64,000 nt of DNA from Glaucostegus cemiculus (Eukaryota): the NCBI GenBank assembly GCA_976551045.1, contig CDPCPM010000052.1, positions 11,036,001-11,100,000 of the forward strand. The letters run 5' to 3'. Shown here one piece after another: positions 170-62,348 of this stretch. The notes below the pieces were generated by a model. It was given only the letters and a program-made list of their open reading frames with translations, searched no databases and had not been told where the DNA came from. Each line of letters starts with the position of its first letter. Within the stretch, counting starts at the first letter, position 1. The translations under genes were made by a program, and so were the position numbers.

Positions 170-3100
170 GTAAGGTTCTGAGAGTTCTGTCATGAAGTGA
201 AAACCCCAGTATCAGGTACCCACAAGATTAATGAATGATGCATAATTTGGAGCCACTTGTCCTCTCCCTACATTCTCCCCCTTTAAGTGGATTTCATCCA
301 TTTTCCATCACCTTTGGGTGGTTGTTCTTGAACATATAGAAATTATGCCACAGAAATGGGCTGTTTGAACCAACTAGTGTACAGCAGTATTTATAAGAAA
401 TAATAAATGTAAATAACGTTATGTCATACAGCTCTTTGAACCTGCTACACATGTCAGCTCCACCTTTCTATTCTACCCCAATTACTCTTGATTCCATTGG
501 TATCCAAGTCTCTGTTATCCCTATCTAGAATATATTAAGTGACTGAGCATTCACAGCCCACTGGTGGTGGCAAATTCCAAAGATTCCAACTCTCTGTGTG
601 GAAATTCCTTATTTCAGTTCTGAAAGATCATCTTATCCTCCTCTCTATTTTTTTAAAAAAACAACCTACTCTTAGCACTCACTCTGTTAAGGCTGCCAAG
701 ACTTTTTCACATTTCAGTGAAATCTCTTCTAAATTTTTGTTAAACAGCAAAGATAAGCCTATTCTACTTTCCCTTGATAAGAAAACCCTCTCTTCCCAAG
801 AATACACGAGATTCTGCGGATGCTGGAATCTGGAGCAACACACACAAAATGCTGGAGGAACTTAGCAGGTCAGGCATCATCATGGGTCCTGATGAAGGGT
901 CTCGACCCAAATTGTCAACTGTTTATTTCCCTCCATAGATGCTGCCTGACCTGCTGAGTTCCTCCAGCATTTTGTGTGTGTTTTTCCCAGGAATAACTAG
1001 GTGCTCTGTTTGAGTCTCCTCCCATTCTACCTCATTTCAGTAGGTCTTTCCATAAATTTGTTCTTTAAGTGTTTAGACATCTTTCCCTGAAAAGGCATCT
1101 GGAATATTTTCATCAACAATCCAAAGTAGTAGCTCATTCCACATTCTTGTAACTCTGGAAAAAGTTTCTTAGGATTCATTAGTGACCATTTCATCATTAT
1201 GGCCTTTGTCCATCCAAAAGTTTGTCAATGTATATTGGTAAGCCACTTGTTCAAGCAAAGGTTCACAACTGAACCAGATCTTGTCCTTTCTGCACATATG
1301 TGTTTCCTATTGGGTCACTAAGCAGTTCTGACTGGTTTCCTTATTTACCCGCTACAAACAAATGAGGAGGCCTGGACACTATTGCAGTACCCATAACTGC
1401 ATAACTCAGCCCTGATTTTCAGTTGATGGTGGGCCATTCCTAGTCTGTGTGGCCGCAGAAGCCATCAAATGATGAAATGTTTTCTGTTTGATTGCTGATT
1501 TGAATAGTACATACAACTCATGCAACACTTCAATTTTTAGGATTTTTATTTTAGTTTTGAAATCCCTCCAAGGTCTCACTCACCAACTCACCAGCAACGC
1601 CCCCCCCCCCCACCGCCACACACCAACCACCACCATCTTCCACCACTGTACCAGTCTCTGTAATCTCTTCCAGCCCTACAACTCTTTGATACGTTAGTAC
1701 TCCTTTAAATTCTGTTCTGAAGTTACCTCTGAATTTAACTGATTCAAAATTGGTAGCCATATCTTCAGCCACCAAGGCACTAAGCTCCGGCCTTGCCACC
1801 CTAAATTTCTCTGTCTTTCTAGCTTTACTTCCTCCAAAGTACTCCATTAGAAAATTATCTGTTTGGCTGAATTTTGGGTCATTTGCCTTACTGTTTCCCT
1901 ATGAGGCTTGGTGTTAAATTCTGACTCTAAAGCACCTTGGCACATTTTGCAATGTTAAGGCCACGATATAGATACAAGTTTATTGTTGTGTGAATGTTCT
2001 TCTAGTTAGAAACTTGGGAGGGAAAATGGAATTCTGCTTATTTTATATTTTTCTTTGTTTCCCTGAATTATCCAGAACATGCAGAAGCAGACACGTTTTT
2101 CTGCTTCACAAACCTGATGTCAGAAATCAGGGACAATTTCATCAAGAGCCTAGATGACTCGCAGTGTGGGATCACTTGTAAAATGGAGAAAGTTTACTCT
2201 ACACTGAAGGAGAAAGACATGGATCTGTATCTCAAACTGGTATGAAAAGGTGTATTGAGACAAATAAGACTGAACAGTGGAGCGTGTTTCAGATCCATTC
2301 ATCCATCAAACCTTGTGCTCACTGACTGACATTAGATATTGGTCTGGCAAGGATGTGATTTTTAAAATATAAAATCTTTATTTTCAAAAGCATCCATAGT
2401 CTTGCTCCTCCATAAACTCTTCCATCCTCCAACTCCATACTCCCACTTCCAGAGACTTCTGCACTACTTCAGACTCATTGCGCATTTCTCATTCGTTTCA
2501 CTCAATCATTGGCAGACTTGCCTTCAGCCATCTAAATCTTATGCTCTGGAATTCCCTCCTTAAATCATTTGCCCCTCACCCTCTTCTCTTTTAAGACCCT
2601 TCTTAAAACCACTTTTTCTTCCTCTTGTTGTTCTCTTATTTAGTCGCTGGTTATTGGGTGTCAAACTTTGATTTGATAACTCTCCTTGTATGTTTCGGTA
2701 TGTTTGGCTTATAAATGATTATGCTAGGGAAATATTTAAGTGAAACTCCAAATAATAAGCTTCAAATAAGAGAGCTAAATATCAGGAATATGAGCAAGGG
2801 CTCCTTTTCACAAGAGGAAATACACTGAACATTTAGTGTTAGCTTTGTTATGCAAAAAGGGAATAGGAAAAGATTTCAGGGAAAATTGAATAGATATTTA
2901 AGGGAGTGATCCAAGGGGTTTTTATTAAGAAAGGCTTGCATATATCTCATCTCAGAATGTTGAAGTATGGTCAATTACTTTTTTTTAGGAGTAATATTTT
3001 GTAATGGTGAAAAGTGCAAAGAATGTAAGCATTTCTTTCTTTGCCAATTCACAGAACTCTCCCATCAGACAACAATGAAATGCTAATCAGCTTCAGCATA

Positions 3101-9100: not shown

Positions 9101-12100
9101 GCCTGTGGCAATGAATTCCACAGATTCACCACCTTCTGGGTAAAGAAATTCCTCGTCATCTCAGTTCTAAAGGGACGTCATTTTATTCTGAGGCTGTGCC
9201 CTCTGGACGTGGAGAGATGTTTCCACTAGTGGAAGAGTCTCGAACCACTCTATCCAGGCCTTTCAATATTCAGTAGATTTCAATGAGATCCCCCCCCCCC
9301 CCATCCATCTAAACTCCAGCGAGTACAGGCCCAGAGCCATCAAACGTTCCTCATACATTAATCCTTTCATCCCTGGGATCATTCTCATAAACCTCCTTGG
9401 GACCCTCTGCAATGCACCTCAGATTTCTGAATTCTCTCCCCATTTAGAAAATAGTCTATGCCTTTATTCCTTCTACCACAGTGCATGACCATACACTTCC
9501 CTACACTGTATTCTATCTGCCACTTCTTTGCCCATTCTCCCAACCTGTCCCAGTCCTTCTGCAGACTCCCTGCTTCCTCAACACTACCTGCCCCTCCACC
9601 TATCTTTGCACCATCTGCAAATTTGGCCACAAAGTCATCAATTCCATCATCCAGATCATTAACATACAACACAAAAAGTAGTGGACCCAGCACCAACCCC
9701 TGAGGAACACCACTAGTCACCGACAGCCAACCAGAAAAGGCCCCCTTTATTGCCACTCCTTGCCTTCTGCCAGACAAGCCTTTATCCATGCTAGTACCTT
9801 TCCTGTAATACAAGGGATACTATCTTGTTTAGCAGCCTCATGTATGGCACCTTGTCAAACACTTTCTGAAAATCCAACAAAACAACATCCACTGACTCTC
9901 CTTTGTCTATTCTGCCATCATTAACCATCATCAGCATGCATCATTAAGGAGCCTCAGCACCCGGGACATGCCCCCTTCATGTTACTAGCATCAGCAGAGG
10001 TACAGGAGCCTGGAGACCCACACTCTAGATTAAGTGAAATCCTTGAACCTACCCAGAGTATTGCATTGTGACCAGAGTAGTTTCCCAGTATTATTTTACC
10101 ATTTGTCTGCCCTGTTCACCAGAGATTGGCCTTCGCTCCATGCAATCCTCCTTTATAATCCGAAATGATCTATACAGTGGCATGGGGATACATCCGGGGA
10201 GGAAGCTTGTTTGTTTCAGTCTCATGAAAAGTTGAAATGCTGGTTATCCAAAGTTGTTTAGTTTCAGAATCATATCATACAATAGAAAAGTGCCACATTA
10301 TGTTATATCAGTGTATACATTTGAATAACTATGCATTGAGTCCTACAACAAACTTGCTGTTAAGGGAAAATTCTATGTTTATCAATCCAAATCTTGGTTG
10401 AAGATCATAATTTCTCCATTTGGTTTCTTTATTTGAAAATTAAATTGCTTCAAATGCTTTATATTTATTTTGATTTACCAATCTCTGTGCTGCCTTAAGA
10501 TGGTGACTTCTGCTTTGGAACTGCAGTAAACTTAGTCAATTTAACAGGATAAAAGCAAGTTTAGTCAGACACTTAGTGACCGGCTGTCCTCAGATCTGTT
10601 TAATGTGATCTTGCAAAATTCTCTAATCCCTTTCTCTATACTTTAATAATGTTGCATTGGATTTTTGCAAAACCTGAGCCTTTAATTTCCTATCAATTCT
10701 AATGTACGTACTTTGCACTGGAGTGTCTGTGCTCATCTCTGCAGGTGCATGTGTGAATGTGTCTGCCCATCTCATTATGTCTGTCCACCCCGATTCTGTG
10801 TTTACCTGCCTGTCTTTCCCTCTTAGAGTGAGTGTGTGTGTGTCCATGTGCACTTTGGGCATGAACATATCTGTCTCCTATTGCTTGTGTGTCTGTATCT
10901 ATCTTTACCTATGCTCACATGAAACTACTTATCCCACTTTCTGCCCATGCATATTTACTTGATTTGTGCGTATCAGTCCTTTTGCCTGTTTGGATGTATT
11001 TGCTTGTCTCCTTGAATATATTTGCCCAATTCTGTATATTTGACTCTCTCTGTCTCGCTATGTTTATGTGTGTTTGTATGTACAATATATACTATTGAAC
11101 GTGTGACTTGTCACCTCAGTTCTCATCTGTCTCATGAACAAGATGCTTCCTATTTTCAAACTTGATAAGTGACTTCCTCTTATCAGACAGTGGGTTCCTT
11201 TCGAAAAGCAGCACGCTGGGAAGTGCCTTTGAGTCCCATCTCCAAAGATCAGGTGGGGGATTTCAGTGTGCCAAAGGCCCAGTATTTGGTGAGTACTGGA
11301 AAATCTATAACTTATTAAAAAAAAAAAAGGCCAAGAGGTTGGGACGATGTCAGTCATTTTGTAGTTTAGTTTGGCACATGCAAAAAGTCTTTTGTCTTTC
11401 GAAGTTAAAGTACATCAATAGTTTTTCACACAATAATGTCTCTTTCACAGTTCATTTGGGCACAATTTTTTAAAAAAATCTTTAATAAACAAAACACTAA
11501 AATAAAATCAGTATACTGCAGATGCTGGGAATTTGAAATAAAAACAGAGAAAACTGGAAAGGCAACAGATCAGGCAGCCTCTAAAGAAAATTATTATATG
11601 CATATCATACTTTTCATGTCCTCTAGGTATTCAAAAGCCCTTTGTAAAACTGTTCCATTGCTGACACTAGGAAACTAACTGGTTTGCACCCAACAGACTC
11701 CCACAAGCAGCAATGTGAATATGAAGAGATTTTGTGTTTTAGTGATGTTAGTCAGACACCATGGTGAACTCCCTTGCTCTTCAAAATAGTATAGCATCCG
11801 AGAGTACATATGGCTATCTTAGTTTAATAACTGACCCAAAGATGGCAGCCTTCCCTCAGAATGTGACCAATAATGTGAACCTAGTCTTTGGAGTGGAGCT
11901 TGAACCTACAACCTTCTGACTCAGAGGATCCACCCTCGAACCACAATCAGTTTTACCTAGTATCAGTAGAAGACAGGAGGTTTGTGGTTTATATACTGTA
12001 GATCCAAAAGAATGTTGTAGCCCGAAAGCAACTGTTAAGTGATAAATCCAAGTCTGTCAGCAAGTAAAGGAGCAGCTCAGGATATGACTCTATTTCATCA

Positions 12101-15100
12101 CTACGATTATGGATGTGCAGAAAATGCTGGAAACACACGCAGGTCAGGCAGCATCCGTGGAAAGAGAAACAGTTAATGTTTCAGATCAAAAATCTCCATC
12201 AGGCCTGGGAAAGAAAGAAAACAAATTAGTGTTAAATTGCAGAAAGGGTGGGGAAAGATGGATGGAATGGGGCCAAGATTGCCATGATTATAAGTTGTTC
12301 GTGACACCAGCTGGTTGATAGATTTATGAGAGTAGTGAGAAAGAGAGAATACAAATAAAAAGACATGCAAAGCCTGTGAAATGCAGGTCAGAAGTGTATG
12401 AAATGCCCAGCAGATCAAGCAATGTCAGTGAAGAGAGGAGAAACAGGTTACAGATACTGCAGATAACACATTACAGATCAATGATGCAGCAAAATTGGCC
12501 AGTTCTGGTACTGAGAGAGTGAATTAGCTCAAACTGTTGAATTAAATATTGAATCCCAAAGGCTGTAACAAGCTCAGACTGAAGTTGAGTTCTGGGCATG
12601 TTGCTGCTTTCAAGACTCCATATTCAATTCAATAATTTTAGTTAACTTGCTTTCCTTGTTTGTATTCATAAATGACCAGTAATGCTATAGATTGTCCATC
12701 TGTAACATTTAAGATTAAGATCTCTTTAGTAGTCACCTGTACATTGGAACACACAGTGAAATGCATCTTTTGCATAGAGTTTTCTGGGGGCAGCCTGCAA
12801 GTGTCACCACGCTTCCGGCGCCAACATAGCATGTCCACAACTTCCTAGCCTGTACGTCTTTAGAATGTGGGAGGAAACCCATGCAGTCACGGGGAGAACG
12901 TACAAGCTCCTTACAGACAGTGGCTGAAATTGAACCCAGGTTGCTGGCACTGTTATAGTGTTACACTAACCACTACACTACCGTGCCTGCCACATTTACT
13001 CTGTTTTCTCTCTCCACTGACGCTGTCTGATTTACTGAGCATTTCCCATATTTCTGATTGCATTCCACAGTTTTTAATTGGCACCCAGCTAGTTTTCTCT
13101 CACACAGCCTTCCAAGGGAATCCTGGCTCCATCTTTTCAGAAATAGTCTCTTTGCCCTGTCCATCCCTTCCTCTCTGCAACTTTAAACAAACTTTTCTCT
13201 TTCCCAGTTCTAATGAAGGGTGTTCAACCTGAAAAGTTAACTCTGTCTCTCTTTTTCAGCTGCCTAACCTGCTAAGTGCCTTCCTGCATTGTCTGTGTTT
13301 TTTTTATTTTCATATTTCCCACATTGGCAGTATTTTGATTTTCTTTATGAGCATACCTTTGTGTGAGGATGCCACAACTCTTCTCACAGTACACAGTTGT
13401 ACTAGGGAGTTATGCTGATCTAAATCATTATGGTTTGAGTTGAAAAACCATGGGAAGGATTTATGAAGACAGCTTGGTGAGATAATTGAGGTTTTAACAA
13501 TACCATGACAGAGTGAAACAAAAGTATCTTTTGCCATAAAAGTAGTTGACACTTCATTGAAGAATATATATCCAGGAGTGTGTCCCAGATGAGTAAGTTC
13601 TCCAGTGGACAAAGAACTAAGCATTGCTTCATTTAATTCTGGGGAAAGAAATGGTTAAAGTAGCTGAAGGGAAGTAGAAAAATAATTAGGAAATAATGTC
13701 TCCATAGAAATTCAGTGTGATTGTGGAGAAAGATAGCAGCCAATCAAAGGTAACTCTTCTAGATTTAGAAAAGGTGAAATTGAGTTAGATAAGAGATTTG
13801 TTTAAAATGAACTAGGCCAATAATTTACTTAGAAGGGACAATGGATCAGCACTGGGAAACACCCAAGTATGAAATGGATATAGTTCTAACTAAAATTACT
13901 GATTTAAAAAAAAGTTGGAGGTGATAAAATCCTTAATGAATGAATTAAGGATTTTCTCTCTTGAGGATCTCTCCCTCTCTCTCTCATTCTCTGCTCCAGA
14001 ATGTATATGCTGTTCCAATTCTGACACGCTGCATGTCCTTGAATTTCAACATTTCGCAACTGGAATCTGCACCTTCAGTTGCCTGGGCCCTATGCTCTAG
14101 AGTTCTCTTCATAGACCTCTACCTCTTCCTTTAGTTTGCTCCTTAAAATTCACCTGATGGACAAACTCTTGGTAATCTGTCTTAATCTCCCTTTCCATAT
14201 TGCTCAGTACCAATTTTTTTTCTTCTCTTTTGCTCAGAGAAGTAGAAAGTGTACCGTACTATTGGTAAATGAGAGGAGGTGAGTGTTGGGAGGAAAATTT
14301 ATATAATGAAAATATATGGTGGGAAGACATTTGAAAAAAGCAAACAGATCTTGAAAGTTAAAGAGGATAATTTTCTAAAAGTACATGTAGATATACTCAA
14401 GGATAATGGCATGTTGAATTTTTAAAAAGAATTGCATATAATTTACAGCATGGAATCAGCACGCTTCACCCAATCAGACTTTGTCAGTTTATGTTTTGCA
14501 TGCAAATCCTTGAAGCCCTCTTCATCCTTCTTTCTACCTCGTAACCAGTATCAGAAGGTGAGAATAGATTGAGCGGGTCTTTATTGACCATGTACAATAT
14601 GGGCCAAAGGGTCTCATTCTGTGTCATAAATTGGAGTTGGTTTATTATTGTCACTTGTACTGAGGAAAAACTTGTTTTGCATACCATTCATACAGACCAA
14701 TTCACTACACAGTGCATTGAGGTAGTACAAGGCAAAACAATGCAGAACACAGAGTAAAGTGTCACAGCTACAGAGAAAGTGTAGTGCTACAGAGAAAGTG
14801 TAGTGCAGATAGACAATAAGGCGCAAGGTCATAATGAGGTATAGGGTCCATCTTGGCATACTAGAGAACTGTTCAATAGTCTTATAACAGCAGATAGAAG
14901 TTGTCCTTAAGCCTGATGCTACATGCTTTCTGGCTTTTGTATCTTCTGCCCGATTGCAGAGGGGAGAAGGGAGAATGTCCAGTATGGGTAGGGTCTTTGA
15001 TTATGCTGGCTGAAATACTGAGGCAGTGAGAAGTGTGGACAGAGTCCATGGAGGGGAGGCTGGTTTCTGTGATGCGCTGAGCTGTGTCCACAACTCCCTG

Positions 15101-17923
15101 CAGTTTCTAGATGTCATGGGCAGAGCAGTTGCCATACCAAGCCATGATGCATCTTGATTGGATGTTTTCTATGGTGCATCAATTAAAATTGTTAAGTGTC
15201 AAAGGGGACATGCCAAATTTCTTTAGTGTCCTGAGGAAGTAGAGGTGCTGGTGAGCTTTCTTGGTTGTGGTGTCTACGTGGTTGGACCAGGCCAGGCTAA
15301 TGGTGATGTTCACTCTGAGGAACTTGAAGGTCTCAACCCTCTCGACCTCAGCACCATTTCCTTAAGTCAATGACCATCTCTTTTGTTCTGCTGACATTGA
15401 GGGAAAGGTTGTTGCCATGACACCACAGTACTAAGCTCTCTATCTCCTTTCTGTACTCCGACTCATTAATTCAATGATTCTCTGATTTCTGTGAAGGTGA
15501 CCACTGCCCAGTGGGTAAGAGGGGGTAACTTGCCCAGGCAAGCAGCCCAAAGTGTACCAGTGTTTCTGATTAAAGTCTGATGTGTAGTTGGGATGAGAGA
15601 GTTCTTAATTCTCTGGATTTCAGATAAATGGGATATATGCTTCTGGGGATGTTGAAATGGGTTACAAAGTTGTGGAGAGTGGGATGTAGCGAAGGGGAAC
15701 TCCCAGCCATGGAGGAGTTTGAAGAGAGTTTTAAATTGGAGGTGATGGTATATCAGGAATCCATGTAGATCAGCAAGGATGGGATAGGTGAATGTAACTT
15801 GATGCCAATTCAGACACAGTTTTGGATGGGTTGAAGTTTGTGGTAGATGTGAGCCTTTTAAGGAGATTGTTGGAATCGTCCACAGCTGGAGGTCCTGAGA
15901 GTTTTGACAGCAGGGATTCTGTGGCTGGTGTTATACTGCAGACATTTCTGGTTCAAGAATGCTTGCTTGGAGTTGCCAAAGGTGTGATTCCCTATTGGAG
16001 AGTTGCTGCAGTTGAATTCAATGCTGACTTCTTATTCTTACCCCTGCAATGCTTCTAGTTGCCCAAAAACCACTGAGGTTGCTGCATTTATCAAAGTCCA
16101 GTCTCCTGTGCATAACTACTTTTTTTCCTCCCTCCACTGATGGCCACCTATCTTGTCTCTTAACCCCAGATTCTTTCCCCACCCCTTAAAATCTCTCTTT
16201 CCCATTTCTGTCAATGGTCTTTTAAAGATGTCATGTGCATTGCTGAGTATTTCCAGCATTTTCTGTTTTTTACTCCTTGAAACCTGATCAAGGTTGGCCT
16301 CCCTTCCTGGTGTCTGTGTTAAATTTTGTTTGTTTAAACTCTTGTGAAAAGCGATGGAGAATTTTGCTATGTTAAAGCTGTCAAATAAATGCAGGCTCTT
16401 ATGCCTGGAATTTTCACTGTGGTACCTTTCATCCAAAATTCTGAGACTCAGGCAGTCAGCTTTCACAATGGTGGTAACCATGGAATTTTGTTTGGAGAAT
16501 CACTAATCCATGATGTCGATTTGAAGAGTCCATTTCCACTTTAACTCTATGGATGTGGCACCTTATGAATTAAAAGAATGGTGATTATTTTATTGAAAGA
16601 TGAGATCTCCCTTTCTCTTTTTGTTATTTCATTAAAAAAGTATTCCATCTTTAAATCCAATGAAAGTAGCATCTGAATTATTTAAGTGGTTGATGTGAAA
16701 GGTGGATATACTGCTGGGATTTTCTGATATCCCAGTTGTCTGTGTGGGTTGGAGAATTTATTCCATGTGTGTTAGAATACAGCTGATTTGGCTGCAGCTA
16801 CACAATACTTGGAAAGAAAGAATATTTATTTTGTATAGTGAGTTATGATCTAGAGTACATCACCTGATAAAAGTGGTAAAGGATGGTTCATTAATAACTT
16901 TGAGTATTAAAGATACATAAAGAAAATCTTGCATGGTTCTGTGGGGGAAAAAAAAGGGAATGTAGCTAATTACATCCCTCTTTTAAACAGCTAGTACAAA
17001 TATAAAAAGTTAATTCCCCTTCTGTGCTCTGATTTTGTATGGCTACTGAGGCAAAGTCAAATCAGCTCAGTCCCAACTCTTGGTGTATAACCATTGCAAC
17101 TTGTTCATATTATTCAGAGCATTATATGGACAAAGGAGACCTGTTTTTCACCAGACCTGAGTTTGTGCATTCATTTATTTGAATGTTTCAGCAGGATGTG
17201 AAACTGGGCCCCATGCACCTACCTAGTGGCTGAAATGCTGCTGTTGAATTCAAGTCTAGTTTTGACTCAGAATGGTTCACATGATGCTTGGAGAGTTTAT
17301 TTCCAGGGCAGAAATAAAACAGGGTAACCATGTCAATTCAGCTCTAAAGGGTTTGTGAGCTGCACAATGACATCAGTTATGGCTTTTTTGGTGGTTCTCG
17401 AGTTAGGTGTGTTTATTCTTGTCCTACTCCGACATGTAATCCAGACTGACACACCCAGTGCAGGTTTTTTTTTGAGGGGATGCTGCACTGTTGGGAAAGC
17501 CATTATTCAGATAGGATGTTAAAATGTGTGCCTTTCTTGTCTTTCAAATGAAAGTAAGAGGTCCGGGAGCAGTGGCTTAATATGGCATTCTGCCTCTAAT
17601 GTGTTGGCCAATATTTATCATATAACCATCACTAATTCAAAAAAAAGATTATATGGTTATCTTACTGTGTGGAACCTTCATATAAATTGATTATCATATT
17701 TACTGTGTTATATTTTATTGTAAAAAGTGCTTTGGGATATATAAATGCGAATCTTTATAAGGCTATAAACATGGCCCATGTAATGTTCTGCCAGTGGAGG
17801 TGTTCAAATGTTTTATTGGTATATTTTGATTTTTTTTCTTCCCATACTTCAAACTAGGATTATCCAATTTCTGATGTTGATCTCATCCTGAAGAAAGCAA
17901 AAGAACTACAGGAAACTGCATAG
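1..17923 (+). CDS. TBC1D13: TBC1 domain family member 13 (Rab GAP), 3' part of gene; exons <1-169, 2076-2239, 4286-4446, 5367-5424, 17858-17923
   Basis: Spliced translation EYEVLPNGCEAHWEVVERILFIYAKLNPGIAYVQGMNEIVGPIYY...EHAEADTFFCFTNLMSEIRDNFIKSLDDSQCGI...QEQNIKPQFFAFRWLTLLLSQEFLLPDVIRIWDSLF...LIRDQLLAGDFTINMRLLQ DYPISDVDLILKKAKELQETA*. TBC YxQGMNE motif present; all introns GT-AG with matching phases (1,0,2,0). Confidence 0.96.
420..800 (-). mobile_element. Decayed CR1-like LINE 3' fragment
   Basis: Reverse complement of the CR1-type 3' region (gggaatctttggaattc...gaatatattcaagac); near-mirror copy at 7262-7630. Confidence 0.65.
805..983 (+). mobile_element. Short palindromic Penelope-derived element with a degenerate hammerhead core
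   Basis: Inverted arms 838-881 / 938-981 enclose CTGATGA-AGGGTCTCGACCC-aaatt-GTC; candidate TSD ttcccaagaata (793-804) / ttcccaggaata (984-995). Confidence 0.7.
2076..2239 (+). CDS. TBC1D13: TBC1D13 coding exon
   Basis: Acceptor tccag at 2071-2075, (E)HAEADTFFCFTNLMSEIRDNFIKSLDD..., donor GTATGA at 2240. Confidence 0.95.
4286..4446 (+). CDS. TBC1D13: TBC1D13 coding exon
   Basis: Acceptor tccag, QEQNIKPQFFAFRWLTLLLSQEF...VCCAML, donor GTAAGT at 4447. Confidence 0.95.
5367..5424 (+). CDS. TBC1D13: TBC1D13 penultimate coding exon
   Basis: Acceptor ttgtag, LIRDQLLAGDFTINMRLLQ, donor GTAGGG at 5425. Confidence 0.92.
7262..7630 (+). mobile_element. Decayed CR1-like LINE 3' fragment
   Basis: Same family as 420-800 in the opposite orientation. 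Confidence 0.65.
8268..8885 (-). mobile_element. Rex/L2-like LINE 3' fragment
   Basis: Minus-strand tail (gacaataaac-taatctaa repeats at about 8270-8290) and RT C-terminal-like sequence (gttgttccgacaccatga...ctgtactctgtctcatcattgttg). Confidence 0.6.
8900..9912 (-). mobile_element. CR1 LINE, 5'-truncated, RT fragment
   Basis: ORF 9385-9813 reads VTSGVPQGLVLGPLLFVLYVNDLD...KFADGAKIGG...LGEWAKKWQIEYSVGKC (CR1 RT); short tandem 3' tail (cataaga-like) at about 8905-8925. Confidence 0.9.
11590..11945 (-). mobile_element. Deu-domain (SacSINE/AmnSINE-like) SINE, decayed
   Basis: Reverse complement of the Deu core (ctcccacaagcagcaatgtg...ttagtgatgtt...ccttgctcttcaaaatag) and tRNA-like head (cttgaacctacaaccttctgactcagagg). 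Confidence 0.6.
12110..13310. mobile_element. Old Penelope-derived element with inverted terminal arms (12110-12275 minus, 13140-13310 plus) and a nested SINE
   Basis: The arms are reverse complements of each other and each carries a decayed CTGATGA...GAAAC core (12171-12203 and 13206-13242). Confidence 0.55.
12701..12988 (-). mobile_element. tRNA-derived V-SINE (HE1-like)
   Basis: V-domain (gtgggaggaaacc...gtcacggggagaacgtacaagctccttacagacag), B-box-like ttgaacccagg, and a 3' tail of aagatt repeats. Confidence 0.8.
14635..15470 (-). mobile_element. Rex/L2-like LINE 3' fragment
   Basis: ORF 14882-15091 (DTAQRITETSLPSMDSVHTSHCL...IIKDPTHTGHSPFSPLQSGRRY) is a typical RT C-terminus; 3' tail gacaataataaacc. 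Confidence 0.85.
17425..17760 (+). mobile_element. Deu-domain SINE, decayed
   Basis: taatccagactgacac...cagtgcag...gagggatgctgcactgttgg...tggccaatatttatc...gctttgggatatataaatgcgaatcttt. Confidence 0.6.
17858..17923 (+). CDS. TBC1D13: TBC1D13 last coding exon
   Basis: Polypyrimidine tract plus ctag acceptor, DYPISDVDLILKKAKELQETA-TAG, resembling the vertebrate TBC1D13 C-terminus; follows a 12.4-kb intron. Confidence 0.92.
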   Translation, partial: DYPISDVDLILKKAKELQETA

Positions 17924-18522: not shown

Positions 18523-18548
18523 CCCAAACCAAACCAAACCAAACCAAA
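18523..18548 (+). repeat. (CCAAA)n microsatellite in the putative TBC1D13 3' UTR
   Basis: cccaaaccaaaccaaaccaaaccaaa. Confidence 0.85.
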
Positions 18549-24500: not shown

Positions 24501-24650
24501 GTTTTCCCAAAATGATGTGCACTTGTATTTAAAAAATTTTTTTTACAAATTGCGCTTAATGTCTGCGTCTGAATTTTAGAATGGAAAGAAATTGTTAGCG
24601 TATTTTGTTCAAAGTGCACATGGTTAATTGTTGTTTTTGGAAAAAAAATA

Positions 24651-24656: not shown

Positions 24657-26434
24657 AATATATACATATTATTTTGGTTGCTTTGTGATCTTTGTGCATC
24701 ACTAGTTGCAAGTACTTGTCCATCCACAGTTCTCATCGCTCTGCCACTTCGCATTCGAGTCTCATCTTCTGAGGCACCAGGCTCTACATTTCCATTCATA
24801 AGCTTCCTTCTGCTTCTGAGGTCTCTCCACCTCACTTTTCAAGATACTCCTTGAAACCTACCTTTTAACCAAATATTTGATCACCTGCCCTGAGGTTTCT
24901 TTTTGTGGTGATCAAATTTTGACCTGGACCAGAACATCATTCCTAGGTCTAGGATTGGATCTTCAAGCCTAATTTCCTGTCTTATTCCCATGAAGTCCAT
25001 TTATCTCGGCCTTAAATAAATAATAACATGAGATAAAATTATTCACATTTACAATCCTCTTCATTGTGAAATTTCTCATATCAGCTTGAGCCTGTTCCCC
25101 TCAAGAAAGGAGGCCCTTTGCATCTGTCCTGTCAACTTCTTTGTTTTGGTGAGAGCTCCTGAACTCCAGTGAGTATTGGCCAGTTTTATCTGATCTCTTC
25201 TCATACAACAAGCCCTTTATCCCTGGAATCTAGTGAATCTATTGTGGAGTGACTCAAAGGGAGCTCTTCATTCTTTTGGTGTGGAGTGTAAAACTTTGCA
25301 CAGTACTCATAGTAAGGTCTGGTGAATCTGAGGCTTTAATGAGCATGTGAGACAATACTTTTGATTTATTCTTCCTCCTTGCTTGTACCTGCATGTTTAC
25401 TTTCTACATCTCACAAGTATCAAGATCCCTCTGTTAATCAAAATTTATTAGTGTTTCTGTGTTCCAAAAAATAATTTTCCTACCAAAGTGCACCATATCA
25501 TATTAACCCAATTTCTATTGCAGCTGCACTACCTTGCCCACTCTCTCAACATGTGCATATATACCGAGGGAGACTGCCTTCGCCTCACGGTTCACTTTCT
25601 AACCTTACTCAATATCGTAGCCAATTAAGATAAATTGCAGAGGCCCAAGAAATGGACCCTCTAAAATCCCTTGGTACTCACCTGATTCTGTTTCCCACAT
25701 TCTCTTGAAACTTAACCGGAACTCATATCCCGCGCTCCTTTTAAACTTAATGGGTTCATTGGAAAATGTATTATTCCATCGTGTAACATTGAAAACAACG
25801 TAAATTAAAAGTGTGTTGTATTATCAATCCAATAGTGTATTAAAAAAACTGGCTGGCCCTACATTGGCGAAGTGCATGATTTACCGGATTAAAGGAGTTT
25901 TCCCCATTGTTTAATACTTGGCAATTTTACATTCTCTGTGGTAATTTCTCCCTGCGTTGTCTCTATGGACGCTCACTTGACGTTGTGTCGAAGTAATTTC
26001 ATCCTCGGAGAAGTAACTGCAAGAGTCGTCGCGATCAAGACTAATTGAGTAATTCAGCCAGTTGAGTATGAATTTTGTTAAAATCGCACAACCAAATTCT
26101 AATATATTACCATAGAGCTGTTGCAGAGTCTGCTGATTTTACCATGTTAGGTAACCGTCTTCACCCATGCACGTAACAAGACAGTGGTGCTCATCCTGAA
26201 CCAGTACGTCATTCCCAGGTCTAGGAACGGGTCTTCAATTGGGTAATCTCATTCCCCATCTCCGGCGACCAAAGGTCAAGAGCGTAGGACAAATCTGGCA
26301 CTGGGGGGACCAGGATGATGGAAAAAGCAGCATCTGTGGAAAAGAAAGCGAGAATAAACTGCCTCAAAGTGCTGCATGAATAATTATTGCCAACAATGCC
26401 CAGATCCTGAAAAAATGAATAACTCTCAAACTCC

Positions 26435-26673
26435 GGAGACACAGGAGACTGCAGATGCTGGAATCTAGAGCAACGACTAAGATGCTGTTTTCTGTTTTCT
26501 TGTGAAAGCTGATTACTATGTGCCTGGCTTGATGCTGCAGGTAAGTTTTCATTGCACCTATGCATACATGTACTTGGCCCAGATGAAGGGTCTCGACCCA
26601 AAAGGTCGACTGTCCAGTTCCCTCCACAGATGCTGCCTGACTCACTGAGTTTCCCCAGCATCTAGTTTGTTGT
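26435..26673 (+). mobile_element. Penelope-derived palindromic element with degenerate hammerhead core and a captured internal fragment
   Basis: Left arm gagactgcagatgctggaatctagagcaac; core CAGATGA-AGGGTCTCGACCC-AAAAG-GTC-GACTG at 26580-26612; right arm cagatgctgcctgactcactgagtttccccagca. Confidence 0.7.
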
Positions 26674-26794
26674 CCAACTTCATCTGGTCGTATTTAACGA
26701 TAAAGCTTTTCATCTCAAAAGAACATGTCACAAGCCATCATCTTCCTAGTGGGCCCTTTAATATGAATTTGGTTTGTTAGGCGATGCATTGCCC

Positions 26795-27465: not shown

Positions 27466-30400
27466 TAAAACGTACAAAGCTCCAGATGCTAGATATCCGA
27501 AACACAGAGAGAGAAAGCTGGAAACTCAGCAGGTCAGGAAGCATCAGTGAGGAGAGACACAGAGCCAATAAACAATCTGCTGGAGCAATACAGCAGTAGC
27601 AATATAAGAAATAGGAGATATACAAATGAATTATTGCTTCACCGGTTGAGGACAAGGAAACTTTATCCTTGTTCTGGCCAGGAGGAAACAGTTCAGAGGG
27701 AACTGTTCCCTCCCTGACTCCCTGGTCCACTCTTCCATCTCCACAAGCCACTCCCCTTCTCACAGCACTTTCCTGTGCAACTGTGGGAGATACATTACCT
27801 GTTCTCTCACCTTGGCCCTTCCCACCATCAAGGAACCCAAACAGCCCTTGCAGGTGAGGAAGCATTTCATTTGCACTTCAGTGTAGTGTAGTGCATTGCA
27901 TTTGGTCCTTATGATGTGATCCCTTCAACAGTGGAAAAAACAAATGCAGATTTGGTGAACACATTGCAGAACACCTCCCTTATGTTCACATGGGTGACTC
28001 TGACCTTCCAGTCGCCTGTCACATTAATTCTCCATCCCACTGCTATTCTGACCTCTGCCTTTGGCCTTCAATGTTGCTCCAAAGTTATTCAGGATCAGGC
28101 TTAAGGATCAGCAGCTCATCTTCTGCCTTGTCATGTTACAACCATTGGGACTTGATATTGATTTTAATAATTTAAAGTAAAACCCTCTTTTTTGTAAATG
28201 TGGCTAAACCTTTGTTTTATTTTGTTATGTTTCAGTTTCTCTCTATCATTTTGTCCCAGTTGCGGGTTCTTAAAGTCATTTGGAGTCTTCCAGTCCTCTA
28301 ATCAAAGAATATAGGGAAATTAAGTTCAGATCCTTTTTCATTTCCTTCCTTGCTTCCTTCAATATGCATTTTATCTATTTGGTCTCTGTCTCTTTCTCTC
28401 TCTCCCTATTATAATACAATATTTCAGAATCAGAATCAGTTTTATTGTCACAACCACATACATACAAAGTATGCAGAGGAGCGATATACCGTCCTCCTCA
28501 TGGTCTCGTCCCATACAAAAAATGACATAACAACCAACAGAGACACATACACACTTGGCAGAATACATAGTATAGATCATTACACCTTAAAAGCTAAGGG
28601 GATTGAACTTAAATTCAGGATCGATTTATCGAATTTCACTTACACGTATACATGTGCAAAAGACATCAAAGACAACAAAGGACACCTGGACAAAAACATC
28701 AAAACATTAACAGCCCCCCTGCCTCACCCCGCACCGACGACCACCTCCAACCCCCCCAGTCCTACAACCTCAGGGCCCACAGACCATCAACAACCCCCGG
28801 CCCACAGTCCGACCACCTCCGGCTCCTTCGCCTCCGGCACCACCTCCAGCCCACAGTCCGACCACCTCTGGCCCACAGTCCGACCACCTCCGGCCCACAG
28901 TCCGACCACCTCCGGCACCTCCGACTCCGCAGTCCGACGACCTCCGGACCCGAATTCCAGCTCCGCAGTCCGACGACCTCCGACCCGAATTCCGGCCTCG
29001 CATTCCGACGACCTCCGGCCCGAATTCCGACTCCGCAGGCCGACCACCTCCGACCCGAATTCCAGCCTCGCAGTCCGACGACCTCCGACCCGAATTCCGA
29101 CTCCGCAGGCCGACCACCTCCGGCCCGAGCAGCCCCCTCACCGCCCGCATCCCGACGCCACCACGAGGCTCCCGGGCCTTCAAGACGCTGCCGCCTCCGA
29201 CGAGCTCCGACGAGCCGTCTTCTTGCACAATATCCACAATGTCAGTGTCTACATCCCATCTCCTTTATGTAGAGGGTTGCAAATTACTAATTTCTCTACA
29301 CTTGGGCTAACCTTAATCATTCTTTGCTATTATTTTTCTCATAATAATAAAATAGCTGAGGGCTTTCTAATTTTAACTTGCCAATATATTTTTCCTGCTC
29401 CCTCTCTGCCTTCCTAATTGTTTGTTTTATTTTCAGAGCCCCTTCTGTTTAGCTTTCTTTTGGCATTGTGAAAGACTGCAGTGGGCAAAATGACATTTCG
29501 GTAGCAATTCAAGTAATTTAACATTCTGTTACTTTTACACTTGAATATGGTAATTGTTAGTCAATAGGAACAGCACCCATTTAGCATCACATGATGAAAC
29601 ACTAGCAGAGTTGTTAAATAATCATATCAATTGGTCTCAATTAATCCACAATAGACATAAGATTTAAACAGAAATCCTCAGGGGCAGAGTTTTGGGAACT
29701 CTTAAGTTCAGTATCACCTGTTTTTTCTAAATTTGCTACATTTATCACATGTCACATTTCAAATTTATTCAAGTACTTTAATCATATGTTGTTGCAGAAG
29801 AATAATATAGTATAAAACACTGTTGTAAGTATATAAATGTAGTCATGGCTGCAGTTGAGAGGAATGCTGGAAAATAATATTAACATAGAAAAGCTAAGTT
29901 TGAAACATTGACATATTTGAGCTGGAGTTTGGGAATGTGTTTCTAATCTACCAAGAAATAAGGAAATATTTCCACAGACAAATAGACAGCTGCAGGGAAT
30001 GGCATATCATGGTCAATAACTTCATTCTCACTGGTTCTAAAATGTGGTCACAGCAATCTGATGGCGTTTAGGGGAAAGCATGTTTTCAATTCTGGTATAT
30101 AGTAAATTTCTGGTAAAGTTACAGCTTCTTGCAGTTGAGAACTAAGCAGCCTTTGATAGGGATATTAATACAGTCTGAAGCATAACCTCTCTTCACCTTA
30201 AGAGAAAGAAATGAATCCGAGGGATACATTCAGAGAACAGTGCTGGCACTCTGACCAGCAATGGATTTTGTTTTCATTTTAGTAACTATTGTTTTAATAC
30301 TGATGTGTATTCATTTTCTCTGGAGAAATAAAACCAACTGCTTGTGACCATGTTGTTGTCAAATTGAATCATGAACCCACACACAAAAGCACATTTTACT

Positions 30401-32088: not shown

Positions 32089-33249
32089 GTTTATCCTTAA
32101 TTCCCTTATTTAGGTTATCTCCTCATTTGAATGTTTTATGCACCTCTCATGTTATTTATGATGTTTAACTGAAATTATTATTAAACTCAAAACTGCAAAG
32201 GAAGCACTGTTAACATGGAGATGACTATTATTGGAATATTCTACAGTTTTTCTTACTGGACTTAAACATTATTTCAGGCCTTATTGCGGCTTCCGGGGAT
32301 CAGATGGGTCAGCTCTTTTTTCTTAGAGTGTGGACATTGTTGGCAAGGCCAGCACGCATTCACCATTTGGAGTTGTGAGTGCGGGTGAAAAAAATCCTGT
32401 TACATTAATTGAAGGAGAATGGAGAGTTCATCTAGCAGCATTTGAACCTCAAAGGTCCTATTTTGTAAAAAGCAAACTGGTTGATTAATCCTTCTGTTTG
32501 TGGGTGCTTGCTGTTCAGAAATTAGCTTTTCCAAAATACTTAGGACATGACCTGAAACATTCTCTCCACAGATACTGCCTGAATTACTACTTCCATCCAG
32601 CATTTTAATGTCTTTTTTAATTTCAGGACTTCAAGTATTTGCCTTTTGCTTCAGAAGTACTCCATTGACTCCCTGGATTGTTTTGAGGTTGTGAAAGCTG
32701 TAGTATAACCAAGTACTTTTTCTTTTAAACCACCCCTAAGTGTTTCACATGCAGTAAGCGGAAATAAGCAATAGAACAGTGGGGGACATCCAAAATTGTG
32801 GTAAAAAAAATTGGCTTCTGTAGAGAAAAGAGAAGTAAAAACTGTAAACATTTTTGCAAGGTGATCACTATATTGATCTTTTTGCTGCTGGTCACACACC
32901 AAAAAAAGGATTTGTTTTGTCAAGTTCCATGTTTGTTGAAGTGTGTTGTTTGTTACAACTTTTAAAAGCCAGGATCATTACATTTGGTTTATATTTATTG
33001 TTTATAATTTTTATTAAAATTAAGTTTTGATTGTAAGGGTGTCATTGCTGATTTTGTTGTTTGAGCCATAATCAGATGTACATCATCTTGATTTGAGCTG
33101 CAAGTTCAAGAACCACAACAGGGACTTCATTCAGGTTGAATTCCATCAGTTTAAAACGATTACAGCTTTACAGATAGGAAATTCATTTATTGAAATGTCT
33201 CTAATTTAAAGTTAAATGTACCTTTTCCTTCTCAGCATGGAAAAGTAGT

Positions 33250-33925: not shown

Positions 33926-34144
33926 GTGTCAGGCTGAATCCACTGTCATTATTTTCCTAGCGATATCAAAGTGCCTAAATTCAGTGGTGGTATAACTTTC
34001 ACTAATGGAATGGCATTCAGATTTGTTGCTGGAGGACAGACCTGACCAGTGACAGCTATATAGCTGGTGCGGCTTTTTTTTTAAAAAAACAAGATTACTT
34101 AATTTCAAACAAAAATGTAGAATGTGTACGTTCACAGTTCACAC

Positions 34145-34850: not shown

Positions 34851-34879
34851 CACGAAGCGTCAAATACACCAGTGTGAAG

Positions 34880-44200: not shown

Positions 44201-47200
44201 ATCTGCCTCATAGATCCAGGAACCTGGGTTCAATTCTGGCCTCTGCTGCTGTCTGTGTGGAGTTTGCAATTCTCCCTGTGATCAAATGGTTTTCTTCTTG
44301 TGCTCTGGTTTCCTCCCCCATCCCAAAGATTGTGGTAGATTAATTGGCTACGGTAAATTATCCTGTAATGTGGACAAATGACAAAAAGAAAAAATGATGA
44401 GCATGAGCAGGAGAAATAGATGAGGGGAATGGGACTGATGCTATGTTGGGAACTAGCCTGGGTTCAATGGGGCAAATGACTTTCCTGTGTCGTAATGATA
44501 AGTAAACTGCTAACTCTAATGGGTCTGCCTGGATCCCCAATGGTGGGGCCATTGGCCAGCCTGAGGGCCAGGAGGTTACACAAGCTGTACGTTGTAGCAG
44601 AGGCTTCTGCTGATCAGTGAGCAACCAATCAAAAAACAGATGATGGGCATCCTCACCTGCTTGTTGATTTAAGTCTCTAAGTGCTGGCAACTAATGGATT
44701 AACGTGCCTTTGAATGGTACCATCGCAGACCCTGCCTTATTTTCTTTCCTCCACTCGTACTTGTTTTGCATCTTGAAAACTTGTTGTGTCTCTTAACTTT
44801 TCCCAGCTCTCATTAACCAATACATTTTGCTCTCCACATATGCTGCCTGACCTGCTGAGTTTTTATATTAATTTATGCTTTTATTTCAGATTTATTTCAG
44901 TATTTTTCTTTTGGATGTATTTCTGCATATTGTTCTCTAGGTCTCCTGAATCCATTGGACAGCCCACACCATATGAGGATTGACGAAGATTCAGAATATC
45001 GGGAGGGGGTGGTTGTTGATAGGCCATCTAAGCCCAAGAAAGGATCATTTGTCAACTGTGGCATGAGAAAGGTTTGTCTTACAAGGATCTAAGTTCAATG
45101 CAAATACTGATTTGTAATTTTAATACGTGCAAAGCATTGTACCTTGTTTTCAATGTGTCATTCCTAAACATTGGCAGAAGAGCTAAACAAGTTCCTGATC
45201 ATGCTAATGAGTAGTCATGCCATCTATTTGGACTTGAATCCTAATGTCATCCAATGTAAAAGGAAGCCAATTGGTCCCTAGCCTTTGTGTTAACTCTTTG
45301 AAAGAACAGTCTAAATAGTCCCACTCTCCTGCCTGCAAAAACATCTTCCTTTCGTTTGGTCAACTTTGCTCCATGAGATTCTTGCACTGCAATTTTTCCA
45401 TTTTTGCTTTTCTAATTTAAATTAGGAAGTACAGATTGACAGACAACTTCAACCTGGCCTCCGTGTTACAGTTCAATTACACAAGAGTGAAAACCCAGGT
45501 AAGATCAGGACATGCTGATTATGTTTCTAGTTATTATACCTGAGATTGAAGCTGTACTGGTGAAAAAAATACAGTTTTACTTTCTAGAAGCATTCTTTAC
45601 AACACCTAGTTGTAGCTGTAGAGTAAGAAGAGACAGTAACTTTGTAAATTACTCCAGTATTTCTTAGACCATTGAAAGAGATACAAAAAAACTAACAATA
45701 TGTCTAATGTAATATTAGTCTTAGTAGCAAGAAGATCAGTGTGTAAAACTTAAGACATCTTACTACAAACCCTAGTTGGTCCTTACTGGTAATATTTTTT
45801 TTATAGTTATGACAATCACAGAATGAACCCCACATGTCAGTTGTAGAGGGGGGGAGGTTGTGAATTTTAGTGCATGTGTACTAAGGCAGTTGAAAGGATC
45901 CCAGACCACTCACCATCTGCTGGTTCTGTGTGTGATTCTGTAAGCTTCCTTCAGAAAGGAGAAAGTGAGCAAAAGGAGTGCAGTCCAAATTTAAAAGGGA
46001 ACTTAAGTTGTATGGCAAGATCATATATAAGACTTGTAAAACTGGAACATTAAAAGGAGAGAATTGATTAGGTTAAGAGGATTTGAAAGGAACAGATAAT
46101 GTATTAAAATTAATATTTTCCATGGAGTCAACAGAGCTGGGATTTTCAGGAGAGAACTTAGGAAACATTTCAGGCAAAGGGCGTTTCACACATGGATCAC
46201 TCCAAAATTAAGCTTGAGACCATAGTTTTCAATTAATAATTTTAAATCCAAGCTCAGTAGCTTTTTTTCTAGACTAATTTGCATGGCGTCAAGGCAGATA
46301 AAGAAAGTTTTCAGATCAGCCATCTCATTGAATAGTGTAAAAAAAAATTGAGGGGCTAAGTGCACTAATTCTGTTCCTTTATTTCTGGTGGCATAGTACT
46401 TTAGAACACAGGATCTATTGCAAGGAGAGGCCATTGAATTCCACAGCTTTTTTTTTACCCCCTTCCATGTTATTTAGAATTTAATGGTTTGTTTTTTGGT
46501 GATTATTAAATAGCTTAAATTTGCTTGTTGGAACATTATTGCATCTGCATTATGTTCTATTAGACCATTGCTCAGAATTGGATTAAGTTACCACAGTGAG
46601 ATATTTCACATTCTTGCCATTGATTCACTGTCCTAAAAAGGGGTATAATTTCTTCACGGTCCACATGGTTTTGAAAGTTGTTCTTCTAAATATTTTCAGA
46701 GGCCAAAAATTTGAAGGGTACAGTTGTCGCCCCTCATGTTCCCCGGACAGAGTCTGGTCTTTACTGGGGTTACACGGTTCGACTTGCTTCTTGCCTCAGT
46801 GAGTTCTTAATCTTCCTTTGAATCTTAGTGATGTTACTGAACCAATAGTGAAAAATTAAAAAAAGGAAAGGCCTGATTGTCTGTGTTTGGTAGGTGCTGT
46901 GTTTACGGAGTGCCCATTCGAAGATGGCTACGATCTTACAATTGGTACATCTGAGCGAGGGTCAAACACTGACAGCACTACACTTCCCTCATTCAAGTAA
47001 GATGTCAGCTATGCCTTGTCCTCTAAACTGTTACTTCTAAGCGACTGCAGACATTTAGTAAAAGCTGCAGGTTCACGAGTATTTTTTATTAATAACCTTA
47101 TCTAAGCTGATTACCATTTACTACAGAATCTATTTTGTAATCACATTGACTGTGGTTTTCTTGTCTGTGGAATTTTCTTCACTTTTTCCTGCCACATAAT

Positions 47201-51825: not shown

Positions 51826-51831
51826 TTTATT
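51826..51831 (-). terminator. CEL poly(A) signal
   Basis: TTTATT on + strand (AATAAA on minus), about 40 nt after the CEL stop. Confidence 0.65.
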
Positions 51832-51868
51832 TCAGAGTCATGCACTGATCAAACCCTTCCACACAGGT

Positions 51869-60303
<8,435 letters not shown>

Positions 60304-61251
60304 TTAAAAAATATTGAAGAATTCATTACTTGTGGGAATGACAGGCAACAGTTTAAATTGTTCTCTCTCTGGGCCAGAGGTTGATTGCTAATGCATTAAT
60401 TATGATTTAACTGGATGTCCAAACACACACACACTATTATGAAGTTTAGCTTACTGTGGTGGTGAGTTGAAAGATTAATTAATGTCCATCAAGTTCTTAA
60501 AAATAATGCAGATGTTGAGAGCACGTCAGCATTTACAGCACACTGGATGCACTTTTTGTAGGATTCAATGTACCATTACTGTCAGGATGAAGGTTAAGAA
60601 AACAATGTCCTATGGACATTGTCCACATACATTAAGTGTCATCAGGGTACAGCAGCTCAATAACTGAGTTTACAACGACCTTAGCTTTGGAGTAGAGGTA
60701 GTGAAGGTTGACCAGTTTCCCATTTGTCTTATAGATTTACTTCAGGGCAGAGTCTATCTTGAGCAGTTCTTAGATAGAGGATCAATCATGATCACATTGG
60801 CGCAACAGGCTTGAAGGGTCAAATTGCTGACTCCAGCACTTAATTTCTATGTTTCCAATGGGCACTGACAGGCTTTGTTCTCCAAGCTCTCCTCTACATC
60901 CGGACGGGCCTTTAAGGTTTTGTGTTGTAGATGATCTTGTGAAGCGACTAGCTGTGCAGTAAATCCAACAACTTGCTGTTAACTACAATATTTGTGAAGA
61001 ATCCATGAGTATTGTGGTTAACAGCTAGTTGCTGGATTTCCTGCACTCTTTCCAAACATCACCTGTTCTTTAGATCAGAATTTTATGCACATCACCCTTG
61101 AGGTGCCTGTAGTTTTTTTTCTGTTTCTCTTTGATGCATGGTAGAGGTTCATATCCGAGAAGACCATGCTTTTGTAGTTAATTACCTACTGGTCGTTCTT
61201 GCCTCAATCCTAGTATTTACTGGTAATGAAGCCAAGAGTCTCTTTACGGGT

Positions 61252-62348
61252 TACAAACAAACTGCTGGAGGAAGCCAGCGGGTCGAGCAGCATCTGTGGG
61301 AGGAAAAGGATTGTCGATGTTTCGTGTTGAAACCCAGCATCAGGACTGCAAGTGGAGAGGTGAGATGGGGAGTGGTGAGAAAGGATTCCGAGGTGATTGG
61401 TGGACTGAGGAGGGGTGTAAGGTGACAGCCAGGTAGTGGAGGTGAGTCGGGGTGGAGTTGGGAGACTGGCTGGTGAACGATACATGGAGGCGGACAGAGA
61501 GAGGAAAACAGGAAAAAAAAGATGGAGCAAAGTGGGTGGAGGGGAGTATGAAGGACACAGCTGCTCTTTTTTCCTCTCGCTCTTTGTCTGCCTCCAAGAT
61601 CCAAGATTGCTTTATTGTCATTGAGTCGTTGAGACAACAGAACAATGAGATTTCATTGGCACTCCCATGTCAGACAATAGGCACAGTACTTAAATATTAA
61701 ATATAGAATAAATTAAGTTAGAGTTTACACTGTAGGGTTTACTTGATGTATTAGAGGGAGAGAGAGAAGTGAGAAAGAACTAGTGCAATCTGTGAAATTT
61801 AAAGTCCTTGTTTAAGATTTTCACGGCGTTGGGGAAGAAGCTATTCCTCAATCTGGCCGTGGATGTGTGGAATGTCCTGAAGCGTTTCTTTGAGGGGAGC
61901 AGGCTGAAGAGGTGATGGGCCGGGTGGGTAGAGTCCTTAATGATGTTTGTAGCCTTGTTCAGACACTGGGACCCATAAATGTCCGCCAGTGCGGTTAGGT
62001 GCACCCCTGTGATCTTCCGTGCCGTGTCAATCACCATCTCCATTTATCTCCATCTATCGTTCACCACTCACTGTCTTCCAACTCCACCCCAACTCACCTC
62101 CCCTACCTAGCACTACCACCTGTCACCTTGCAACCCTCTTCAGTCCACCAGTCGTCTCAGAATCCTTTCTCACCACTCCCCATCTCCCCCCTATACCGGC
62201 CATCTCGCCTCTCTACTCACAGTCCTGATGCAGGGTTTCGACCTGAAACATCGACAATCCCTTTCCTCCCACAGATGCTGCACGACCCACTGAGGTCCTC
62301 TAGCAGATTGTTTGTTGCTCCAGATTCCAGCATCTGCAGTCTCTTGTA
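61252..62348. mobile_element. Penelope-derived element with long inverted terminal arms, hammerhead-like cores and a 13-bp TSD
   Basis: Arms 61252-61490 and 62045-62348 are reverse complements; exact flanking direct repeat TCTCTTTACGGGT at 61239-61251 and 62349-62361. Confidence 0.8.
61595..62040 (-). mobile_element. Rex/L2-like LINE 3' fragment nested in the Penelope-derived element
   Basis: ORF 61780-62043 (ARKITGVHLTALADIY...IIKDSTHPAHHLFSLLPSKKRFRT...RLRNSFFPNAVKILN); tail gacaataaagcaatcttggatcttgg. Confidence 0.85.

Follow-up and report, generated by a model that had tools for sequence, protein, structure and literature searches.

Mutated minimal hammerhead motifs, very probably carried by truncated Penelope-like elements, in a 64,000-nucleotide window of Glaucostegus cemiculus

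Penelope-like elements (PLEs) of the Neptune type encode a reverse transcriptase (RT), a CX2-5CxxC linker and, at the C-terminus, a GIY-YIG endonuclease (EN), and inverted truncated copies with a one-sided tail of 30-40 bp are described as a PLE signature (Craig et al. 2021, PMC8557442); such a tail, confined to one end, is also reported in PMC11167929. Minimal hammerhead ribozymes (min-HHRs) in the pseudo-long terminal repeats (pLTRs) of PLEs, the way they are dispersed singly with truncated elements, their occurrence as opposite-strand pairs and their low dimer activity have already been described (Cervera & De la Peña 2014, PMC4209133). In the Anolis Poseidon element PAc, the one-sided tail is tied to two internal reverse-transcription start sites, and the hammerhead cleaved only with protein and was dispensable for insertion in vitro (Frangieh et al. 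2024, PMC11167929). Non-LTR retrozymes, by comparison, are head-to-tail units of 150-450 bp that are expressed as circles, as many as 120,000 copies being present in axolotl (Cervera & De la Peña 2020, PMC7229834). A recent preprint calls a retrozyme where two consecutive units carry complete hammerheads, and reports both PLEs and retrozymes in its one chondrichthyan (Li et al. 2026, bioRxiv 10.64898/2026.07.22.740005). Here we describe a family of hammerhead-bearing repeats in a 64,000-nucleotide stretch of the Glaucostegus cemiculus genome (positions 11,036,001 to 11,100,000 of contig CDPCPM010000052.1), referred to below as the window.

It is very probable that the six hammerhead-like motifs of the window are mutated minimal type I hammerheads, likely unable to cleave, situated in the pLTRs of 5'-truncated PLEs that make up four head-to-head insertions. 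The six motif strings quoted in the original prediction were all located, with position C3 of the fifth copy at 61343 and not 61344; the copies are called by such numbers below. The minimal type I anatomy proposed for them is recovered in the column majority of the six, which restores the full core, with CUGANGA, GAAA and NUH in type I order, an extra base between 9 and 10.1, G10.1 and no loop 3, features of the min-HHRs of PMC4209133. The core as a whole is intact in none of the single copies, each of which carries one or two core substitutions, as the earlier caveat had it. G10.1 is present in all six copies and is faced by C in three and by U in three. Across the copies, 87.5% of stem II and 66.7% of stem I positions pair, together 76% of cells, versus 17-48% when the stems are slid. 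The ACGU palindrome that had been proposed to form a dimer stem III is kept by no copy. The CG at 15.2/16.2 is lost in all six, and four of these losses are CpG-type, which bears out the claim of much CpG-type decay. As C15.2 survives in three copies and G16.2 in the other three, and four of six losses are CpG-type, we infer the palindrome for the ancestor only. The six copies are likely dead, to judge by their sequences.

Copies 61343(-) and 62225(+) have A9C and G16.2A in common, and the 3' strand of their stem I is altered in the same way. These changes were probably already present in the source RNA, because both arms of the insertion share them. In 62225(+), the A that follows C9 might replace A9. 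A9C is common to two arms of a single insertion, which makes it at most a candidate subfamily trait.

The hammerhead motif taken alone is weaker evidence than the relatedness of the repeats around it. The six copies share 73-86% identity over 92-116 nt, reaching past the motif. A family profile built from 11 window regions gave 17 matches when searched against the window, 15 of them at E<0.01 (4 outside the training set), and a single match (E 0.83) against the reversed window used as control. It follows that the repeat family is real and denser than had been stated: a family was rightly predicted, but its density is about 1 per 4 kb (15 fragments, six of which retain the hammerhead region) and not about 1 per 10 kb. 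The further claim of at least two subfamilies is supported in the form of tail subfamilies.

Read at first as separate copies, the six motifs belong to four insertion events, and all six lie in inverted arrangements. Arm ends were counted in nucleotides from the hammerhead cleavage site. In the three subfamily-A events the two arms end at +63/+102, +70/+100 and +63/+100, and in the fourth at +57 versus approximately +92-108, the long end being approximate. The inverted, 5'-truncated layout with a one-sided tail is thus found in four of four events, one arm being about 30-40 nt longer each time. In three runs, 195, 986 and 1057 contigs from other copies stop abruptly at 26435, their flanks being unrelated, and position 26435 is therefore a shared family terminus. 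The fold-back of insertion 1 is predicted to form an RNA hairpin of -111.6 kcal/mol (z -12.8), and that of insertion 3 is interrupted at 26495-26575 by an unrelated repeat, found again at 59638-59727. An insert of some 450 bp (approximately 61598-62047) interrupts the right arm of insertion 4, and the arm resumes beyond it (32/38 match, 0/500 shuffles as high). The insert itself has, on the minus strand, a stop-free frame of 87 amino acids that has no Pfam match and that we take to resemble the C-terminus of a long interspersed element (LINE) of the Rex1/L2 type. Insertion 1 also sits within a large inverted duplication (459-1151 / 7113-7604; 84-87% identity over blocks of 119-145 nt). The left copy of this duplication is interrupted around 803-1032, the seat of the 889 fold-back, and as a result the right copy (7113-7604) may preserve an empty site.

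The origin of the family from PLEs, as originally predicted, is supported by two confirmed open reading frame (ORF) remnants, by the inverted tails upstream of them and by a read-through match to a PLE protein. The Penelope GIY-YIG remnant was confirmed by tblastn against RT plus GIY-YIG proteins (E 4e-14), as was the RT remnant (E 3e-10 to 1e-9). An inverted family tail lies at most about 100 nt upstream of both remnants, for which a rough chance is 3e-4. A phmmer search with the translation of 27870-28070 (X at the stop) returned 12 matches, of which 4 have a weak GIY-YIG match and 1, the gustatory receptor repeat P0008, is spurious. Among longer relatives, GIY-YIG was found in 5/5 and RVT_1 in 4/5, the GIY-YIG Pfam scores being mostly just under the curated cut-off; the five relatives that were looked up are all from sharks or a skate, as would suit a cartilaginous-fish host. 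The best homologues (P0017-P0021) contain a CX4CxxC linker, and a decayed trace of it is seen in the window. Pfam found neither GIY-YIG nor RT in four remnant translations, and word-index searches with P0001 and P0004 gave no matches. The C-terminal read-through of P0017, a PLE protein of Stegostoma tigrinum, matches best at hammerheads 13210, 889 and 26580, with scores that rank 1, 2 and 4 of 127,906 positions for a segment picked post hoc, once the resemblance had been noticed. This match places the motif, indirectly, in the sense orientation and 3' of an RT-EN ORF, in a relative. Searches for further copies in metagenome contigs found 0, and there were no PLE loci among 226 pattern matches in prokaryotic collections; 3 matches in actinobacterial bins were taken as chance and left unused. 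The window also contains LINE-type RT fragments at 9385-9819(-), with an RVT_1 match, and at 33507-33995(+), with none, which are unrelated to the PLE family.

Several results weigh against this reading. The window has neither an intact PLE nor an ORF that is followed directly 3' by a hammerhead; no hammerhead was found there 3' of the EN remnant, whose 3' flank has no alignment to the pLTR. Rfam gave no hammerhead match in the window at E<=10. The stem I/II covariation check that had been suggested, made on the window copies, yielded 1 compensatory pair, with 365/500 shuffles as high, for six sequences from four events. The hammerhead fold is the minimum free energy (MFE) structure in one copy of six, 13210, whose MFE fold consists of stem I plus stem II. 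The decay of the copies, by contrast, counts in favour of the reading: core deviations (8/66) do not differ from those of the tail (32/211, Fisher p 0.69; wider tail 61/335, p 0.29), and there is no sign of post-insertion selection in this test, which is low-powered at six copies and four events. It could be argued from the lack of an Rfam match, the non-significant covariation and a relaxed descriptor equalled by shuffles that the resemblance to a hammerhead arose by chance in a common type of repeat of the short interspersed (SINE-like) or miniature inverted-repeat (MITE-like) kind. We regard this as very improbable because the majority sequence has every core base and the PLE-specific extra base, and because both the position relative to the PLE ORF and the tail asymmetry are as in PLE hammerheads.

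A min-HHR descriptor was run on the window and on 20 shuffles. It found 0 intact copies in the whole window, 3 sites (13210, 61343 and 62225) at one core mismatch or fewer (shuffle mean 0.3, maximum 2) and 13 sites at two or fewer (shuffle mean 4.2, maximum 13), and copy 12202 fails even at this setting. Two other sites were rejected as copies. A decayed half-motif near 12465-12483(-), spotted by eye, is not above shuffles, and site 57978(-) agrees in few core letters and has no tail homology in the profile search.

The family appears to be very abundant. Abundance was taken from sequencing-run contigs at 80% likeness, and the depth ratios that result are not copy numbers. Over 26595-26659 the summed depth comes to 1.7e5 in run X1, 1.6e6 in X4 and 1.6e6 in X6, against respective depths of 3.4, 10.4 and 14.3 at exon 1 of the ENDOG-like gene, a repeat/exon ratio of 5e4 to 1.5e5. 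The very high copy number predicted earlier is in line with this, read only as 'very abundant'. Bins over the EN remnant reach depths of 460-9,200, and the hammerhead bin stands at approximately 170-360 times the EN remnant. Contigs of two other organisms, C and D, span 26635-28308 at roughly 94-95% identity, covering the last ~40 nt only of copy 26580, from which it follows that C and D split from organism A after both the inverted tail and the EN remnant were in place. The repeat is also present in contigs of run X14 (organism D), guessed to be RNA, which is uninformative on strand, ends and level.

Part of the family could be a non-autonomous short derivative, either a retrozyme-like unit of ~240-270 nt or a fold-back of ~190 nt, self-amplified via PLE proteins and possibly as circular RNA, an explanation that we consider possible but rather unlikely. 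It would suit the excess depth of the hammerhead bin, the recurrence of inverted-tail/hammerhead joints in several contigs of other organisms and the finding of non-LTR retrozymes by Li et al. (2026, bioRxiv) in their one chondrichthyan. It would also suit a partial tandem, a tail followed by a hammerhead copy, with a period of 237/271 nt on the two arms of the 12.2/13.2 kb pair, which has one hammerhead per arm. The upstream tail fragments of this pair (insertion 2) match each other at 58/75 positions (0/500 shuffles as high) and also match other family tails, but against their own downstream tails they do not rise above shuffles. Moreover, autonomous PLEs normally show partial tandems and 5' truncation, and truncation, as well as the EN remnant's greater age, would also lead one to expect an excess of depth. 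The term 'retrozyme-like' used in the original prediction is not supported: the window has no unit with two hammerheads and no head-to-tail array in which two or more successive units each carry a complete hammerhead, Tandem Repeats Finder detected no tandem array of the family, and the element ends lie +57 to +108 nt beyond the cleavage site and not at it.

Truncated PLEs remain the preferred source, and published work on other PLEs suggests how they could have given rise to the layout. The RT-GIY-YIG protein would nick genomic DNA and prime reverse transcription inside the RNA that encodes it, from either of two sites 3' of the hammerhead. Synthesis would usually halt early, so that only the pLTR end is deposited. 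A second priming on the opposite strand would then add the inverted arm, and the use of two sites would account for the difference of 30-40 nt between arms. By analogy with the same elements, the parent RNA would have cleaved after GUC/GUU only when two copies paired via the palindromic ACGU as stem III, probably aided by the element's protein. After insertion, the copies would have decayed neutrally, CpG sites first.

Features of the hammerhead-bearing repeat family in the window (arm ends in nt from the cleavage site)
Feature	Position	Strand	Remarks
min-HHR copy 1 (889)	884..921	+	G12A, A15.1U; stem II 4/4, stem I 3/5 pairs; intron of TBC-domain gene, sense
min-HHR copy 2 (12202)	12170..12207	-	A9G; stem II 2/4; intronic, antisense
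min-HHR copy 3 (13210)	13205..13243	+	G5A; intronic, sense
min-HHR copy 4 (26580)	26575..26612	+	U4A, G12A; upstream of ENDOG-like gene
min-HHR copy 5 (61343)	61311..61348	-	A9C; stem II 3/4, stem I 3/5; likely intronic in carboxylesterase gene, sense
min-HHR copy 6 (62225)	62220..62257	+	A9C; stem II 4/4, stem I 3/5; likely intronic, antisense
Insertion 1 fold-back	797..988	.	inverted tail ~800-881 (-, ends +102) and hammerhead/tail 885-988 (+, ends ~+63)
Insertion 2 left arm	12107..12460	-	tail fragment upstream, then pyrimidine-rich spacer, hammerhead and a short tail ending at +57
Insertion 2 right arm	12991..13349	+	long tail; 214/276 columns identical to left arm, head-to-head
Insertion 3	26431..26685	.	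inverted tail 26431-26487 (-, ends +100); hammerhead and tail 26576-26685 (ends +70)
Insertion 4	61244..62360	.	arms head-to-head, joined near 61552, with 207/237 columns identical; tail ends at +63 and +100
Tail-only family fragment	11506..11600	-	profile search
Tail-only family fragment	16241..16276	+	profile search, E 0.004
Tail-only family fragment	32549..32625	+	profile search, E 2e-6
Tail-only family fragment	44827..44893	+	profile search, E 3e-8
Inverted family tail(s) without hammerhead	27476..27596	-	~100 nt upstream of EN remnant
PLE linker (CX4CxxC remnant) and GIY-YIG EN remnant	27692..28186	+	frameshifts and a stop; intron 1 of ENDOG-like gene
Inverted family tail	52117..52182	-	abuts RT remnant
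PLE RT remnant	52173..52619	+	several stops

Many copies were predicted to lie inside pre-mRNAs, and five of the six do appear to be intronic, three by their flanking exons and two by inference. Copies 889, 12202 and 13210 sit between exons of a RabGAP-TBC gene on the plus strand (3 exons by Pfam), the last exon of which was read by eye near 17860-17923. Copies 61343 and 62225 are likely intronic since they lie upstream of a mid-protein carboxylesterase exon on the minus strand, and 26580 is upstream of the ENDOG-like gene. Three copies (889, 13210 and 61343) are sense to the host gene, all with broken cores. In 4/6 copies, 12202(-), 13210(+), 61343(-) and 62225(+), a polypyrimidine tract ending in CAG runs up to the start of stem I, and in the sense copies this may be a cryptic splice acceptor. 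The intronic and sense placements, together with this tract immediately before the motif, might suggest that some copies were domesticated and now act on host pre-mRNA, by cleavage or another form of processing. Such a role has very little chance of being real, as every copy has one or two substitutions in the invariant core, the dimer palindrome is kept in none and the core is conserved no better than the tail. Paired copies also lie on opposite strands, and each transcript would therefore contain only one sense copy of each pair. Activity in pre-mRNA is accordingly unsupported.

The genes of the window follow the order RabGAP-TBC 1-17923(+), ENDOG-like nuclease 26916-31982(+), PF02598 RNA methyltransferase ~43000-48400(+) and carboxylesterase ~53600-60250(-). 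We take the RabGAP-TBC gene to be TBC1D13, the PF02598 methyltransferase SPOUT1 and the carboxylesterase CEL. The methyltransferase and ENDOG are on the same strand here; in human, we presume, the methyltransferase is on the strand opposite to ENDOG. Inside the ENDOG-like gene is a GC- and CpG-rich minisatellite (28793-29128) with units of 22 and 35 nt that is open in several frames. A long near-perfect hairpin at 60954-61046 has weak matches to microRNA precursor families, far below gathering scores, and is possibly a small inverted-repeat element.

Hammerheads of this kind have been known since 2014, and the window extends them to one more chondrichthyan genome, where they are notable mainly for their abundance. 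A literature search returned no paper on this shark/ray family, and the supplements of PMC4209133 and of the bioRxiv preprint may list shark motifs. Being so abundant, the family could serve as a large natural sample in which to map the priming sites and inversion junctions of PLEs. If A9C were a subfamily trait, it would allow a direct test of whether hammerhead cleavage is needed for PLE retrotransposition. A bolder proposal, which we hold to be speculative and unlikely as it stands, is that shark and ray genomes contain roughly 100,000 PLE hammerheads, to a large extent from short non-autonomous offshoots, a ~190-nt fold-back and a ~250-nt unit, with one whole subfamily amplified with A9C. 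If true, it would provide natural evidence either for a hammerhead fold kept for protein recognition or priming over cleavage, or for the extra base after 9 replacing A9.

When set against the described systems, the copies most resemble the min-HHRs of PMC4209133, with which they share type I topology, a 5-bp stem I, the extra base between 9 and 10.1, G10.1-C11.1, the lack of loop 3 and, putatively and in the ancestor only, a palindromic 15.2-16.2. As there, most are single motifs that lie scattered as parts of truncated PLEs, some of them forming opposite-strand pairs, and the splice-acceptor-like sequence at the start of helix I is also seen in D. virilis Penelope (PMC4209133). They differ in having a stem II of 4 bp, as opposed to 7-8 bp in S. 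mansoni, and in an apparent copy number that greatly exceeds the figures in that paper, 4,000 motifs for coelacanth and 9,000 for Xenopus. The opposite-strand pairs here are approximately 0.9-1.0 kb apart, one owing to a later insert, compared with ~100-700 bp there, and all copies are broken. The family is also from a cartilaginous fish, and the consulted part of that paper does not mention this group.

Non-LTR retrozymes likewise are short non-coding repeats, related to PLE pLTRs, that contain a type I hammerhead and have a high copy number. Their hammerheads are mostly canonical and their units consecutive, whereas the arms here are head-to-head, each with one minimal, broken hammerhead. 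PAc is similar in that its genomic copies end at two sites downstream of the hammerhead (PMC11167929). One of its start regions, 111-118 nt into the ORF, corresponds by subtraction to ~85-92 nt past the cut site, and the long arms here end at about +100. In contrast to this family, PAc belongs to the Poseidon clade, is intact and has been assayed. The remnants share with Neptune-type PLEs the domain order, the CX4CxxC linker (in homologues), 5' truncation, an inverted copy at the 5' end and a one-sided tail. This linker is a Neptune/Nematis feature (PMC8557442), and the family, seen here as fragments alone, may belong to either clade.

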